The translations under genes were made by a program, and so were the position numbers. Under the pieces are notes generated by a model, which was not told the DNA's origin, searched no databases, and saw only the letters and a list, made by a program, of their open reading frames with translations. Below, one piece after another: positions 13,412 through 43,029 of a stretch of 64,000 nucleotides of DNA (positions within the stretch are counted from its first letter, which is position 1; every line of letters begins with the position of its first letter). The stretch is from Escherichia phage vB_Eco_F27, in sequence record OP870146.1. One strand, written 5' to 3'.

Positions 13412-13882
13412 TTAATCATGTTTCCACACCCCATCGGTATTTGACCAAAGTCGCTGATTATCTGATCCTCGCCACAGCTTTTTAGTCGGAAGATTTTTCT
13501 CATACTTCCCATCAATAATAACATCAACATATTTAAGCATTTCTAGTTGTTTAATATCTTCAAACTTATATCCTGTCCACAACCAAATGCTTTTATTGGG
13601 ATAAAGATTTTTTACTGTTTGAACAATGCAATGAATAACATCTCGGTTATCAGGATAGAGAGGGTCACCTCCGGTTATAGTTAATCCTTCTATATAATCA
13701 TTATTCAAACATTCAATTAATTGTTCTAGTGTTTCACCAGTGAATGGAACACCATTTCTAGCATTCCATGTTGATTTATTATAACACCCTTCGCATTTAT
13801 GCAAACAACCCGTAACGAAAAGAACGACCCTGCATCCAGGGCCATTCACAAAATCGCAAGGATAAAATCTATCATAATTCAT
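13412..13882 (-). CDS. nrdG: anaerobic ribonucleotide reductase activase NrdG (radical SAM)
   Basis: 156 aa with CLHKCEGC (CxxxCxxC). Same length and near-identity to T4 NrdG. Confidence 0.9.
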   Translation of the reverse strand: MNYDRFYPCDFVNGPGCRVVLFVTGCLHKCEGCYNKSTWNARNGVPFTGETLEQLIECLNNDYIEGLTITGGDPLYPDNRDVIHCIVQTVKNLYPNKSIWLWTGYKFEDIKQLEMLKYVDVIIDGKYEKNLPTKKLWRGSDNQRLWSNTDGVWKHD

Positions 13883-15158
13883 TGGTGTTTAACCCTATGC
13901 ATGATTTCTTTATTTTTACCGAGATTAAATCCGCGTTCGTTCGGATTTCCCAAATAACCACATGTTCTTCTTATTGTGTTCATCTTTTTAGGATCAGTTT
14001 CTCCACAAATAGAACAAACAAATCCGTTTTCAGTAGGAGTCATTTCATGGGTACTTCCACATGTAAAACATTTATCTACTGGCATATTAACACCAAAATA
14101 ATCTAAATGTTGTGCAGCATAATCCCATACGGCCTCAAGGCCTTTCAAGTTATTTTTCATATCAGGAAGTTCAACATAAGAAATGTGACCACCTGTCGCA
14201 ATGAAATGATATGGCGCTTCACGAGAAATCTTTTCAAACGGAGTAATATTTTCTTCTACTGAAACATGGAAACTGTTAGTGTACCAACCTTTATCGGTAA
14301 CATCTTTTACGCTTCCATATTTTTCTGTATCAAGTTTACAGAAGCGGTAACAAAGGTTTTCAGCAGGAGTAGAATACAAACTAAAAGCAAATCCAGTTCT
14401 TTCGGACCACTGTTTAAGATGAGCATTCATTTTAGTTAAAATTTCTTGCCCAATATCACGACCGACAAGAATATTCAATTCGTGAATACCAATGTATCCT
14501 AAAGACACTGAACTTCTACCGTTTTTAAATAACTCAATTATGTCGTCATCAGGTTTAAGACGAACCCCGAATGCACCTTCTTGGTAAAGAATAGGAGCAA
14601 CAGTCGCTTTAACACCCTTTAAAGAACTAATTCTACACATCAAGGCTTCAAAACACAGATCCATTCGTTCATTAAACAATTCGATAAATTTCTGTTCATT
14701 GAACTGTGTTCCAATATAAGAATCTAATGCGATACGAGGAAGATTCAGTGTTACAACACCAAGATTATTACGTCCATCAAGAATTTCATTACCGGTTGAA
14801 TCTTTCCACACACTCAAAAAACTGCGGCAACCCATTGGAGAAACAGGAATAGATGAGCCGGTGATAGCTTTATTGTTCTTAGCTGAAATAATATCAGGAT
14901 ACATTCTTTTGCTTGCACATTCTAACGCAAGTTGTTTAATATCATAGTTCGGATCATCTTTATAAAGATTAACACCTTCTTCAACAAACATAACAAGTTT
15001 AGGAAAAATAGGAGTTATTCCATCACGACCAAGGCCTTTAATGCGGTTTTTAAGAATTGCCTTCTGAATCATTCGTTCAGTCCAGTCAGTTCCCGTACCA
15101 AATGTAATTGTTACAAAAGGCGTTTGACCGTTTGAACTGAAAAGTGTATTTACTTCAT
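13879..15158 (-). CDS. nrdD: anaerobic ribonucleotide reductase NrdD, exon 2
   Basis: Exon 2 begins AT GAA GTA AAT (..EVNTLFSS) at 15158, directly after a G. C-terminus is ...RRTCGYLGNPNERGFNLGKNKEIMHRVKHQ (glycyl-radical site). Joined with exon 1 it encodes 605 aa, the T4 NrdD length. Confidence 0.85.
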
Positions 15159-16202
15159 CATTATATTCAGCATGAGTCGCAAATTCATGCCCGTTTATAT
15201 GAAACAACAAAATTTGGATAGTCCATAGATATGCAACGTTCTTTTATAGTGCTAGGATGAAAATTTAGCGCTTTAGCTGCTTCTATATAAGACGTATACT
15301 TAATACCGTCAACAACCACATATTCAGGAACTTTATGAATAGTAGTCTTAATACTCAAAACAAGAGGATGAGTTTCGACTTCACTTTCAGTGCAATTTAA
15401 ATATTCCGCTGCTTTTTTAAAACTTCTAAAAGTTTTATTTTTAAGCTTTATCGATACTTGTTTTTTACTTTTTCGACTATTGATATTATTTTGCACATGT
15501 TCCTTAGATCTTCCGTTTTTAGCATAATATTCAGCTACAGAAGATTTTATATTGTTTTTATGAGATTCGGATAACACTTTACCCTTATGAGCATCTCTTA
15601 ATTTTTGAATATGTTCTTCAGTATCCGGATGCTTATAAAACTTTTTACCGCCTATGGATTTATTTAAACATTTTTTGCTATAAAAATATTTACGTATGAC
15701 CTCTTCTTCATGTTTTAATGCATCTTTATAACTATCAAATGTTTTTAAAATTATCCATTTAGTAGGTGTATCAGTTTTTAAGCGTTCATTTATATACTTA
15801 GATGACGTTGTGTAAGTTTTCCAGTTTGTGGGCTTGTTTTTAATTGTTCTAAATTTTTTATAACCGATATAAATGTCGCCATTAGAAAACTTAACTAAGT
15901 ATGTAAATGCGTCTTTATCTTTTATTTTAGTACAACGTCTTTTATCCATTTCATTGTTTCACCTCGTATTCATAAGATAATCTTATTTATACAAGATGAC
16001 TGCTGCATGTCGCCATGCAGATTAGACTATATCTTCATCTTTCGATGCCGGTCGTTTCGAATAGCATTAGCTTCTATTCTACACCGCTACATTCATCACG
16101 GTTAGTCGTTAGGCATTTAGTTCAAAAGAACATTTAGCACGGGATTGTCTACTAGAGAGGTTCCCCGTTTAGACCGGTTTTACATGAGCCTGAATTAAAT
16201 TA
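15159..16202 (-). mobile_element. group I self-splicing intron in nrdD (1044 nt)
   Basis: Exon 1 is readable to ..DAFQAYE then hits a stop. Exon 2 resumes in frame only if spliced after GAG-U (16203) to AU-GAA (15158), restoring the T4 sequence AFQAYEYEVNTLF. The 5' exon ends in U and the intron ends in G. The intron contains a free-standing endonuclease ORF. Confidence 0.8.
15185..15949 (-). CDS. intron-encoded GIY-YIG homing endonuclease
   Basis: 254 aa. N-terminus FTYLVKFSNGDIYIGYKK (GIY-10-YIG spacing), HEEEVIRKYF and CLNKS motifs as in I-TevI/Seg. NUMOD3-like repeats (TEEHIQKLRDAHKG, SESHKNNIKSSV) and C-terminal HTH-like segments (AAEYLNCTESEV, IEAAKALNFHPSTIKERC). GAGGTG SD before ATG 15949. 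Confidence 0.7.
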   Translation of the reverse strand: MDKRRCTKIKDKDAFTYLVKFSNGDIYIGYKKFRTIKNKPTNWKTYTTSSKYINERLKTDTPTKWIILKTFDSYKDALKHEEEVIRKYFYSKKCLNKSIGGKKFYKHPDTEEHIQKLRDAHKGKVLSESHKNNIKSSVAEYYAKNGRSKEHVQNNINSRKSKKQVSIKLKNKTFRSFKKAAEYLNCTESEVETHPLVLSIKTTIHKVPEYVVVDGIKYTSYIEAAKALNFHPSTIKERCISMDYPNFVVSYKRA

Positions 16203-16740
16203 ACTCATACGCCTGGAACGCGTCATAGACATCTTTTTCTGTTTTAGATTGAGCATAATTCAACGCATCAGCGATTTGCCATTTTTCTGCATCTTCAACA
16301 TGTTTAGCGTATGTGCGTTTAACATAAGGAGAAAGTACTTTATCGACATTCGCAAATGTAGTTCCGCCATACTGGTGTGAAGCAACTTGTGCAGTAATTT
16401 GTGCCATAATTGCAGTAGCAACGCCAATAGATTTAGGCGTTTCAATTTGAGCATTGCCTAATTTAAATCCATTCTCAAGCATCCCCTTTAAATCGACCAA
16501 ACAGCAATTAGTAAACGGAAGAGCAGGAGAATAATCAATATCATGCATGTGAATGATTCCGCTTTCATGCGCATTCATAATAAAAGACGGGACCATATTT
16601 TTGGCAATGTGCTTAGACACAATACCAGCCATAAGGTCCCGTTGAGTTGGAAAAACACGAGAATCTTTATTAGCATTCTCGTTCAAAAGATCTTTATTAG
16701 TTTTATGAATTAATCCTTCAATTTCTTTTTCAATTTTCAT
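16203..16740 (-). CDS. nrdD: NrdD exon 1
   Basis: MKIEKEIEGLIHKTNKDLLNENANKDSRVFPTQRDLMAGIVSKHIAKNMVPSFIM... is near-identical to the T4 NrdD N-terminus. The reading frame terminates at 16195 unless spliced. Confidence 0.85.
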
Positions 16741-30449: not shown

Positions 30450-30701
30450 TTATTCTTGGAATGGTGTGAGTTTTCCAGCTATCGAACAAATTTCTACCAT
30501 TGCAGGATAAAACTCTTTCACTTGTTCAAGGCGCTGGACAGCGTACCGCATTTCGCCTTCTTCAAGACAAGCCACCTGGTCATCGAGCAAATATTTGTGG
30601 TAACCAGTACAGGCTTCACTAATGATACGTTGGAATTCTTGCAAACTTTCAATTTTCACTAGTATTTTTCCTCGGGTCGAAATACTGCACGACATGCCCA
30701 C
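30450..30701 (-). CDS. hypothetical
   Basis: 83 aa ORF. Confidence 0.4.
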   Translation of the reverse strand: MGMSCSISTRGKILVKIESLQEFQRIISEACTGYHKYLLDDQVACLEEGEMRYAVQRLEQVKEFYPAMVEICSIAGKLTPFQE

Positions 30702-30925
30702 ATGCTGGCTTCTTTTAGATGTTGCTTAGCATACTTAAGAGCCTGTACTGCATCCATATCTTCTTTGGTTTGTTGCTCTGTTTCATTTTCTTTCAAGATA
30801 TATGCTTCTTCAATCAGAGCATCAAACAACAATCCAAGACGGACTTCTGCATCTTTAATAGCGTTCACTTTACCGATTTTATCGTCGGTATGTGGCTTGT
30901 AGCCTTTAATATCTTCAATCGACAT
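30659..30925 (-). CDS. hypothetical
   Basis: The 144-aa ORF is trimmed to MSIEDIKGYKPHTDDKIG... (ATG 30925, GAGGAAA SD). This ATG overlaps the stop of the upstream 74-aa gene (tATGtcgatTGA). Confidence 0.4.
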   Translation of the reverse strand: MSIEDIKGYKPHTDDKIGKVNAIKDAEVRLGLLFDALIEEAYILKENETEQQTKEDMDAVQALKYAKQHLKEASMWACRAVFRPEEKY

Positions 30926-31139
30926 AAGGAATTTCCTCATCGGTGGCAAGGTCATATTCGACCAATTGGATAGGCTCATTAATACCATATCCACGTACAG
31001 TGATATCAGTTGCCGGATAGTTTCCAGTAATATCACCCATTCTAAATGCTTCAGTGAATGATTGCTCGCCTGAGCAACTAAACCAGGCGGCAAAACATTT
31101 TAAAACATCTTCAGACCCTTCTATAATCAATTTAGCCAT
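30915..31139 (-). CDS. hypothetical acidic protein
   Basis: 74 aa ORF. Confidence 0.4.
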   Translation of the reverse strand: MAKLIIEGSEDVLKCFAAWFSCSGEQSFTEAFRMGDITGNYPATDITVRGYGINEPIQLVEYDLATDEEIPYVD

Positions 31140-31501
31140 TATAGACTCTCAGTAAAGGTACGAGCGATAACGTCGCGCTGCTGTTCCGGAGTCAGAGAGT
31201 TAAAGCGAACTGCATAACCGGATACACGGATGGTCAGCTGCGGATATTTTTCCGGATGCTTAACTGCATCTTCCAGAGTTTCGCGACGCAGAACGTTAAC
31301 GTTCAGGTGTTGACCACCTTCAATTTTAACTTTAGGTTGATGTTCAATTTCAATTTCACGGGCATGCAAACCGTAGAAAATTTCCGGGTCTACAATAGAG
31401 TCTTCTTTAAAAGTCTTAGAGACGATAATCCGGGCTTGAGTACCGTCTTCAAAATAAATAGTGCCTTTATGTGTACCTTCAAGAATTTGATATGCTTTCA
31501 T
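31139..31501 (-). CDS. grcA: autonomous glycyl-radical cofactor GrcA/YfiD-like protein
   Basis: 120 aa. The C-terminal ~60 aa, [61 protein letters not shown], is a glycyl-radical motif (RVSGYAV) and, as I recall it, essentially identical to E. coli GrcA. Confidence 0.85.
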
Positions 31502-31507
31502 ATAACC

Positions 31508-31816
31508 TCAATTAGAAAATAAATTTATCCAAGATTTTTCTTTAATCAAAAATGGGTCGGAATTAAACGCCATTAAACTTTGAGTGATTAATCCCTTAAA
31601 TGGCCCATCAATAAATTCCATTTTGAAATGTGGAATACTAGTCATCAACCGTGCATTAGGAGCAGTACAAAGAACATGCTGCCCTGCGAACGGACCTTTA
31701 GTTAAACGATATCGTTTAGGTTTAAAATGGTAAATCTCGTAATTTTCTACAAGAGCCCTTTTATTGCATACTGGGCTGTTATAACAATACTCAAAAACTT
31801 CAATAGTGGTCATCAT
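31508..31816 (-). CDS. hypothetical
   Basis: 102 aa ORF. Confidence 0.4.
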   Translation of the reverse strand: MMTTIEVFEYCYNSPVCNKRALVENYEIYHFKPKRYRLTKGPFAGQHVLCTAPNARLMTSIPHFKMEFIDGPFKGLITQSLMAFNSDPFLIKEKSWINLFSN

Positions 31817-32352
31817 TGCATTCCAATCACAAAAAATTGAGGACGAGCATTACCGCCGATGCAATATTTGCTTTTGCAGCAGTGCTGTACTGTTTTAATG
31901 TGGACATTGTAAATCTTATCCATATCAGGAGCTTTAATAGGCTCGTCAATTATATACAGAATACGAGAAAGCGTTAATCCACGGAATTTAGAACCTTCAT
32001 TGCCAATAAAACTACGAACAGAATCAGTAAATAAACGGAATCGAATATCATCGCTAGAATAACGAGAAAATTCTTTTTTAATGTTGCCAGCAGAAATTTT
32101 AGCATAAGCTGAAGTATTAGAAAGAACAATAACTGTTCCACCATCATATAGCCAATTAACAGCAAAATTAGTTACTGCGGACGATTTACCTGATTGTCTG
32201 CCGCCGTCTAAACGAAGTGTACAGTACTGCTTGAGTACGTCTTCAAATGGTGGGGCATAACCGTTCTTACAAATTTCTTCTACTCTAGCATCAGAATGGT
32301 GTGTAAAAGCATTCATCAGGGATAGATAAGGTCCAGTTAAAAATGTTCTCAT
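31813..32352 (-). CDS. P-loop protein of unknown function
   Basis: 179 aa with GGRQSGKSSAV. Confidence 0.45.
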   Translation of the reverse strand: MRTFLTGPYLSLMNAFTHHSDARVEEICKNGYAPPFEDVLKQYCTLRLDGGRQSGKSSAVTNFAVNWLYDGGTVIVLSNTSAYAKISAGNIKKEFSRYSSDDIRFRLFTDSVRSFIGNEGSKFRGLTLSRILYIIDEPIKAPDMDKIYNVHIKTVQHCCKSKYCIGGNARPQFFVIGMQ

Positions 32353-32462
32353 TTAGTTTCTCTTTTAGGTTGGGCCATTCCGTGGCGCATGAATTGTCCA
32401 TTTCTGTATTTACCCCTCCAAGTAATTATGAATATACTATCACAATTCTAGGAGATGTAAAC

Positions 32463-42777: not shown

Positions 42778-42854
<77 letters not shown>

Positions 42855-42954: not shown

Positions 42955-43029
42955 TGGTGGCCCTGGCTGGTTTCGATCCAGCTACCTATCAGTTATGAGC
43001 TGACAGCTCTCCCATTGAGCTACAGGGCC
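42955..43029 (-). tRNA. tRNA with CAU anticodon (Met, or Ile2 if lysidine-modified as in T4), CCA encoded
   Basis: Hand-folded. Acceptor GGCCCTG/CAGGGCC, D-stem GCTC/GAGC, anticodon stem GTCAG/CTGAT with loop CUCAUAA, T-arm GCTGG-ATCGAAA-CCAGC, discriminator A, then CCA. Confidence 0.8.

Follow-up and report, generated by a model that had tools for sequence, protein, structure and literature searches.

A host-identical grcA block within the vs.6 orthologue of Escherichia phage vB_Eco_F27, most likely the product of repeated gene conversion

Pyruvate formate-lyase (PFL) carries its radical on G734, which is also the site at which the enzyme is cleaved (PMC8683613). Two spare-part proteins, YfiD (GrcA) of Escherichia coli and Y06I of phage T4, have been validated for the rescue of PFL, both being activated by the PFL activating enzyme (PFL-AE), according to those passages of PMC8683613 that relate the work of Wagner et al. 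2001. Within YfiD, residues 61-127 constitute a structured plug that mimics PFL 693-759, and residues 1-60 are disordered, aiding both binding to cleaved PFL and activation (PMC8683613). On the phage side, vs.6 was noted in 2006 as a conserved Gly_radical open reading frame (ORF) in six of six T4-like genomes (PMC1524935), and the T4 product (NP_049730) is named autonomous glycyl radical cofactor GrcA by RefSeq; Y06I is taken here to be vs.6, as it is the sole Gly_radical ORF in that T4 interval. This article concerns the corresponding gene of Escherichia phage vB_Eco_F27, analyzed within a window of 64,000 nucleotides (nt), that is, the whole stretch of sequence record OP870146.1 under study. 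The gene, an ATG-to-TAA ORF of 120 codons on the minus strand at 31139..31501, is identified from its domain matches and synteny as the T4 vs.6 (Y06I) orthologue of a Mosigvirus-type T-even phage, encoding a spare-part protein of the GrcA/YfiD type. Sequence comparison further indicates that the gene is a long-established phage homologue of grcA whose structured glycyl-radical domain has been overwritten by a host-derived patch, and repeated host-to-phage gene conversion is the most likely, though not proven, origin of this patch.

The ORF is composed of three stretches, all on the minus strand. The central block, ORF nt 179-353 (31149..31323), encodes residues 60/61-118, corresponds to the structured plug of YfiD, and is identical to E. 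coli K-12 grcA at 175 of 175 positions. The 178 nt upstream (31324..31501; residues 1-59/60), which correspond to the disordered region of YfiD and represent the phage-lineage N-domain, are only about 50% identical to the same host gene, and in the phage-type tail, ORF nt 354-363 (31139..31148), each of the last three sense codons is synonymously different from that of E. coli. Nei-Gojobori counting gives 0 differences at the 44 synonymous sites of the block, compared with a proportion of synonymous differences (pS) of 0.72 and of nonsynonymous differences (pN) of 0.44 in the 5' half; the nucleotide alignment that an earlier sequence-only reading of this DNA had proposed as a check therefore speaks for recent transfer. 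The guanine-plus-cytosine (GC) content rises from 0.35 in the 5' half to 0.50 in the block, the surrounding genome region having about 35-40%, and the edges of the block are sharp, with divergence and base composition both shifting at ORF nt 178/179 and 353/354.

At the protein level, residues 61-120 (EGGQHLNV...TFTESL) are identical throughout to residues 68-127 of K-12 GrcA, where the sequence-only reading had expected an almost complete match; the string that it quoted was right but for its initial residue, V being the E. coli letter and I that of the phage. Because the 60-residue peptide hardly varies among Enterobacterales and Pasteurellaceae, such identity is uninformative by itself on recent transfer, and Cronobacter phage leB encodes the same 60 amino acids (aa) at a DNA identity of only 83%. 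The nucleotide sequence is far more discriminating. Among 81 grcA genes of Enterobacterales and Pasteurellaceae, the second-best genus reaches 90.6% over the block, and in all 5,426 complete E. coli genomes the block is present at an identity of at least 98.3%, with 100% in roughly a quarter of them. The identity of the block is, on these comparisons, far beyond chance and beyond what protein constraint explains. The host genes pflB and tdcE were rejected as its source, since the grcA match in E. coli is 100% and that of pflB only about 79.5%. Transfer in the opposite direction, from phage to host, was likewise rejected: the block has a host-like GC content, and phage-private substitutions, mostly from GC to AT, are absent from the 5,426 E. 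coli genomes, so the flow must have run from host to phage.

The age of the block can be judged from a comparison of phages. Between the window and T4, pS falls from 0.34 in the 5' half to 0.02 in the block (Fisher p = 3.6e-4), and a sliding comparison over the approximately 7.5 kb that can be aligned between the two yields a median of 40 mismatches per 175 nt, the unique minimum, with 2 mismatches, being the block. Mosigvirus-type and T4-type backbones are separated by 10 fixed differences in the 5' half and by none in the block (Fisher p = 0.022), and the block divergence between genera (3.1) matches the diversity within genera (2.1-3.4). On this sequence evidence, it is considered secure that the block is host-derived and younger than the split of Mosigvirus and Tequatrovirus. 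Under a single, ancient capture that predates the separation of the T-even genera, the block would have been preserved by very strong purifying selection acting on its glycyl-radical domain; this would agree with the near-invariance of the peptide and with block edges that are common to all, and yet selection on the protein does not protect synonymous sites, at which the block is indistinguishable from E. coli and nearly so from T4 while the adjoining half has diverged. Moreover, the DNA identity is 74-85% in other phage lineages with an identical or nearly identical peptide, and the block has retained the GC content of the host in an AT-richer region, so that this very improbable explanation is effectively refuted by the synonymous-site data. 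Contamination of phage assemblies by host reads might also be imagined, as host DNA is present in phage lysates and the block of the window matches the allele of K-12, a common laboratory strain; however, the block is found in about 640 independent phage genomes, including the reference T4, always between the same phage-specific flanks, it contains phage-private substitutions, and phage mogra, which was grown on K-12 MG1655, has a non-K-12 haplotype. An artefact of this kind is hardly credible.

The N-terminal half tells a different part of the history. The sequence-only reading had described it as different and had suggested capture of the host gene or a recombinant chimera; the difference is real, as stated above, and a chimera with an unrelated N-terminus is ruled out by end-to-end profile-profile homology to the N-domain of GrcA. 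When 10 phage N-halves were compared with 11 bacterial GrcA N-halves, hhalign returned a probability of 97.6% (E 4e-12) over 62 columns at 26% identity, although the phage N-half alone gave no NCBIfam match. The vs.6-type gene is present in about 1,590 phage records, the hosts of T4-like carriers including Escherichia, Klebsiella, Enterobacter, Citrobacter, Cronobacter, Yersinia, and Aeromonas, and T5-like and jumbo phages carry it as well. Since the gene is old and widespread, it is not a fresh capture of a whole host gene. The proposed acquisition from the host consequently holds for the C-terminal block, which comes from E. coli, and fails for the gene as a whole, the event being one of patch-wise conversion within an old homologue.

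The T4 gene provides the closest comparison. T4 Vs.6 (SwissProt Y06I; NP_049730) is likewise 120 aa long, lies at the same locus between vs.7-like and vs.5-like ORFs in the regB-denV interval, and possesses a host-identical block with the same edges; the ORF of the window is 94.2% identical to it over all 363 nt and shares 115 of 120 aa. The two proteins differ by T21I, I36F, H54P, K57T, and R73H (window to T4), the codons of the tail differ, and the block of the window is the exact K-12 allele, whereas that of T4 has CGC replaced by CAT (R73H). Closer still is gene 160 of Escherichia phage mogra (Mosigvirus), the nearest relative of the window, annotated as 'autonomous glycyl radical cofactor', with 99.4% nt identity. 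With E. coli GrcA/YfiD (P68066; nuclear magnetic resonance structure 6OWR), the phage protein shares the architecture of a variable N-half followed by a structured glycyl-radical plug with the radical glycine in RVSGYAV. It differs from the host protein in that its N-half is only about 26-33% identical, seven residues shorter, and AT-rich, and in that its gene lies in a phage cluster, unlike the FNR/ArcA-regulated host gene between ung and eamB.

Whether the block was converted once or many times is a question of alleles, and base-by-base analysis was carried out on 19 of the about 640 E. coli-class phage genes. Several E. coli alleles are found among phages as exact copies over all 175 positions: the K-12 allele in the window and in DCP548, the common T219 allele in L101 and L103, the T219+A282 allele in five phage records, and the G192+T219 allele in nine, among them Mosigvirus SSE1 and the Tequatroviruses ESh36 and Kelasse. 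Shigella was the isolation host of six of the nine phages with G192+T219, and Shigella phage Sf24 is one mismatch away from a fifth allele of E. coli, carried by strain C25. Two sites, 192 and 219, vary in E. coli as well as on both phage backbones. The presence of several E. coli alleles, the lack of fixed differences between the genera in the block, and a Klebsiella counterpart, described below, together make repeated conversion likelier than a single event.

It is possible, though rather unlikely, that the block was captured recently and only once in one T-even lineage and was then spread between Tequatrovirus and Mosigvirus by phage-phage recombination without further input from the host. 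T-even genomes are mosaics, the block edges are identical in 19 of the 19 E. coli-class genes, the commonest phage haplotype (T219) is one E. coli allele, and nested shared substitutions (C207T, C327T, G249A, and C265T) record vertical descent of the block within Mosigvirus, all of which would be expected of such a history. Against it, genus-specific differences approach the 5' edge as closely as 9 nt and are found in the 10-nt tail, so every exchange between the genera would need both crossovers inside the block or at its very edges. The K-12, G192+T219, and T219+A282 alleles are also present as exact copies in phages, and Sf24 carries a variant of yet another allele. Furthermore, the Klebsiella-type block, which arose independently, shares its 5' edge with the E. 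coli type, which means that shared edges do not require a single event. The 5' edge probably marks the limit of DNA homology between phage and host, at the point where the conserved domain starts; the 3' edge falls immediately short of the stop codon, at the end of the homology and at the overlap with the start of the following gene, and this tight packing may explain why host sequence has never been copied through the last 10 nt.

Several observations weigh against repeated conversion and keep it from being regarded as proven. The sample of 19 genes is small, and the same block edges in all of them are what a single founding event would give. Three site-and-base coincidences would arise by chance with a probability between 0.0005, if any change is allowed, and 0.14 under the strictest null, which considers only uniform synonymous transitions. 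Nested AT-ward substitutions in some Mosigviruses show that the block also passes down by vertical descent, drifting toward AT. The two block differences between the window and mogra do not exceed the local background of 1%, the Tequatroviruses from Yersinia and Hafnia carry alleles of E. coli and not those of their isolation hosts, and exchange of the block between co-infecting phages could explain part of the pattern. A private re-conversion in vB_Eco_F27 itself was rejected, as the 2 differences in 175 nt from mogra, which are confined to the block, show no excess over the local divergence of 0.8-1.2%. The Tequatroviruses just mentioned, Yersinia phages PYps32T and PYps47T and Hafnia phage IsaacDaniel, have exact E. 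coli grcA alleles in the block, which suggests that E. coli or Shigella are their recent natural hosts.

Across the phage collection, block identity is bimodal. About 640 records have at least 96.6% identity to the block of the window and the remainder at most 88%, and the gene is consequently not equally divergent in all T4-like phages, so that the uniform distribution which the sequence-only reading had said would speak for ancient acquisition is not the one observed. The 5' halves of these E. coli-class phages range from 87.5 to 100%, their blocks have 0-6 mismatches to E. coli and at least 15 to other genera, and in the lineage survey their genes share exact runs of 131-173 nt with E. coli, with the exception of L105 (longest run 71 nt). 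The patch type follows the host, the E. coli type occurring in about 640 Tequatrovirus and Mosigvirus genomes and a Klebsiella type in Jiaodavirus. In the Jiaodavirus genes, a block with 57-58% GC stands beside a 5' half with 36% GC; it is nearest to grcA of the K. pneumoniae complex (7-14 mismatches in 175 nt, 4-8%, compared with 18-25, 10-14%, for other genera) and shares exact runs of 44-77 nt with Klebsiella grcA. These blocks are mosaics with mixed combinations of Klebsiella allelic states, and in three Jiaodavirus phages the block differs by 9-10 nt but the 5' half by only 2-6 nt.

A recent host patch is not a feature of every lineage. Karamvirus, Pseudotevenvirus, Slopekvirus, Krischvirus, T5-like, Aeromonas, and jumbo phages are among the remaining lineages, for which identity to any bacterium is 70-85% and exact runs do not exceed about 35 nt, except for 56 nt in L121; some of these lineages have E. 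coli or Klebsiella as hosts. The block of leB is 81% identical to Cronobacter grcA, that of Slopekvirus 05F is 79-80% identical to Klebsiella, and those of Krischvirus and T5-like E. coli phages are only 68-74% identical to E. coli. The IMG/VR collection, which is dereplicated, returned seven E. coli-class copies. It also contains, from human-associated metagenomes, a clade of GrcA-like proteins of 130-137 aa (L118-L123 and L129) with a C-terminal block closest to Haemophilus grcA (81-83%), and L121 shares its 56-nt exact run with a Haemophilus metagenome-assembled genome (L081); this Pasteurellaceae-phage clade may represent a third, older host-derived block.

Considered together, these distributions incline us, by a modest degree only, to the view that the structured domain of a lytic-phage gene is in ongoing concerted evolution with host grcA, independently in E. 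coli T-even phages and Klebsiella Jiaodaviruses and possibly in Pasteurellaceae phages. The closest evolutionary analogy would be the mosaicism of psbA in cyanophages, where intragenic recombination between host and phage copies of psbA and psbD was reportedly described by Zeidner in 2005 and Sullivan in 2006. In both cases, a phage homologue of a host metabolic gene, the product of which is damaged in infection, exchanges patches with host alleles, leaving mosaic genes with discontinuities in composition. The present case differs in that the tract is limited to one domain with fixed edges, the carrier is a lytic coliphage containing hydroxymethylcytosine, and the product is a stand-alone mimic of a fragment instead of a full enzyme subunit. 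As for the mechanism, fragments of the degraded host chromosome that carry grcA would pair with vs.6 where identity suffices, the recombination system of the T4 type would copy the host fragment into the phage gene, and a first patch, once established, would offer perfect homology for later conversion events. In the literature that could be searched, no account of vs.6 as a host-copied mosaic was found, only functional papers and the conserved-ORF note of 2006, so an earlier remark is possible.

The assignment of the product to the GrcA family rests on several concordant matches, in agreement with the claim of the sequence-only reading that it is a GrcA-like spare part. The product matches Pfam Gly_radical PF01228 with 67 bits (E 2.3e-18) and the NCBIfam GrcA equivalog TIGR04365 (IPR011140) with 158 bits (E 1.3e-46, residues 18-120), and among solved structures it is closest to E. 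coli YfiD 6OWR (E 1.4e-42), with the C-terminus of PFL (696-759, 95 bits) in second place. The RVSGYAV glycyl-radical motif comprises residues 92-98 (31208..31228, minus strand), and the codon of the radical glycine G95 (31217-31219, minus strand) aligns with G102 of E. coli GrcA and G734 of PflB. GrcA2 and GrcA3 (NCBIfam NF008341 and NF038360), as well as the C-terminus of PflB, share the glycyl-radical plug, with 106 and 94 bits over residues 55-120; however, these families are about 78-80 aa long without an N-half, and the protein of the window falls far under their cut-offs, its best match being full-length GrcA. As it is orthologous to T4 vs.6/Y06I, for which PFL rescue has been demonstrated, both the gene and its biochemical function are already known.

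In the proposed mechanism, the cluster of vs genes from vs.3 to vs.8 between regB and denV would yield the 120-aa protein during infection, and its C-terminal domain (residues about 61-120), mimicking PflB 693-759, would dock onto PFL that oxygen has cleaved at Gly734. By analogy with the T4 and E. coli proteins, the PFL activase of the host (PflA) would then place the radical on Gly95, allowing the plug to stand in for the C-terminal piece lost from PflB and the conversion of pyruvate to acetyl-CoA and formate to resume. A module of 120 aa may be made because a host whose expression has been shut off cannot resynthesize the 760-aa PflB. Restored PFL could keep acetyl-CoA, ATP, and formate flowing under fluctuating oxygen. 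Class III ribonucleotide reductase (RNR) requires formate, and the formate so produced might serve as reductant for the phage's own enzyme of this class, encoded by nrdD and nrdG at 13.4-16.7 kb.

The sequence-only reading had extended the rescue to other glycyl-radical enzymes (GREs), which found no support, the block being of GrcA/PflB type. It might nevertheless be supposed that the protein mainly services an enzyme other than PflB, such as phage NrdD or host TdcE, or that it acts as a decoy titrating PflA. The phage does encode NrdD and NrdG, TdcE has a PflB-type C-terminus, and two papers lend some weight to the idea, an early comparative study having guessed at a role in nucleotide metabolism (PMC1524935) and the authors of the 2021 article in the Journal of Biological Chemistry speculating that some GrcAs may repair other GREs (PMC8683613). 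However, GREs other than PFL score at most 49 bits against the vs.6-like protein, well below the 95 bits of PFL 696-759; the match at the DNA level is to grcA and not to pflB or nrdD; and T4 Y06I reconstitutes cleaved PFL with PFL-AE, as stated in the relevant passages of PMC8683613, so that a principal target outside PflB is regarded as improbable. Three points tell against the GrcA assignment and the PFL-rescue function preferred here. The TIGR04365 score of 158 bits is narrowly below the NCBI equivalog cut-off of 170, a shortfall due to the divergent N-half; the function is carried over from T4 Y06I, from which this protein differs at 5 of 120 residues; and the link from formate to NrdD, as well as the rationale that no new PflB can be made after shut-off, are steps that we infer. 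Taken as a whole, the explanation that the ORF is a vs.6 orthologue and GrcA cofactor rescuing PFL, and an old gene with a block repeatedly converted from the host, is held with good confidence.

The gene lies in a tightly packed, co-directional cluster, and its position and strand are conserved in the order regB ... vs.4-vs.5-vs.6-vs.7-vs.8 ... denV on the maps of T4 and mogra, the T4 region being colinear with window positions 30657-32415 at 79.5% identity. Its product is a stand-alone small protein, with its own Shine-Dalgarno sequence and ATG and unrelated small ORFs on either side. The Shine-Dalgarno sequence GAGG (31506..31509, minus strand), read directly from the sequence, is 4 nt upstream of the ATG and is overlapped by the TGA stop of the upstream vs.7-like ORF at 31508-31816 (TGAGG, 31506-31510). 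At the other end, the TAA stop shares the A at 31139 with the ATG of the downstream vs.5-like ORF at 30915-31139, which encodes 74 aa (TAATG). A scan for promoters and terminators around the vs.6-like gene revealed nothing above chance.

Elsewhere, the gene is found in other settings. In T5-like phages and T4-like phages of Aeromonas, a GrcA-like gene lies directly downstream of tRNA genes, as in Escherichia phage EC104 (Tequintavirus, L091; 29-274 and 301-669) and Aeromonas phage L9-6 (L092; 107-178); this context is unlike the vs cluster of T-even phages, and the gene has therefore moved or been separately acquired in these families. In Escherichia phage vB_VIPECOOM03 (L190, Tequatrovirus; 251-619), a 6-nt duplication of two codons (IE) in an EIEIE repeat just upstream of the block gives a protein of 122 aa, and the block contains the nonsynonymous change E77K. 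Among IMG/VR sequences, L169-L172 and L174-L178 are 71-aa ORFs on short 'viral' contigs, with a 28-residue start that is C-terminal sequence of PflB type and not of GrcA type; they could be ends of host pflB beside prophages or else GrcA3-like spare parts derived from PflB. On the bacterial side, a full-length grcA is located on a 275-kb replicon labelled as a plasmid (L026, NZ_CP170105.1, Klebsiella sp. WOUb02 'plasmid unnamed4'), and a contig of Vagococcus sp. WN89Y (L034) has a grcA of enterobacterial type with 91% aa identity to E. coli, its presence in a genome labelled as that of a Firmicute being probably due to contamination or mislabelling.

The anaerobic RNR genes are present where the sequence-only reading had placed them. 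The gene nrdG lies at 13412-13882, and nrdD (13879-16740) is interrupted by an insertion of about 1 kb, so that it consists of a 5' exon at 16195-16740 (minus strand; NRDD profile 1-141) and a 3' exon at 13879-15210 (minus strand; NRDD profile 145-562). The insertion contains a 254-aa ORF resembling GIY-YIG/NUMOD1 homing endonucleases (15185-15949), an arrangement that we take to resemble the T4 nrdD intron and I-TevII; an Rfam scan of the nrdD gap returned no group I intron at the gathering threshold. Two tRNA genes (Rfam RF00005, 71 and 62 bits) at 42781-42854 and 42958-43029, both on the minus strand, presumably belong to the T-even tRNA cluster.

With the gene and its function already known, vs.6 represents a textbook case of a phage-carried repair module for a host enzyme needed at low oxygen, which fits with the phage's own anaerobic RNR. 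The idea of host derivation is correct in the refined form given here, and recurrent conversion is a modestly interesting, testable by-product. For a near-invariant domain such as this, recent transfer should be judged by synonymous sites only and not by protein identity to the host gene. What may be of wider interest is the evolutionary pattern, namely exact host alleles in a lytic phage that contains hydroxymethylcytosine and degrades host DNA, with a parallel in Klebsiella phages. If the exchange is indeed recurrent, vs.6 would offer a simple natural assay, small enough for PCR, of how T-even genomes recombine homologously with fragments of the host chromosome, and its block might serve as a marker of the recent host species or clade, useful for phage-therapy isolates with ambiguous natural hosts. 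The block would then constitute a running record of the host alleles recently infected by a phage lineage, and the psbA mosaics of cyanophages would have their enterobacterial equivalent in this gene.

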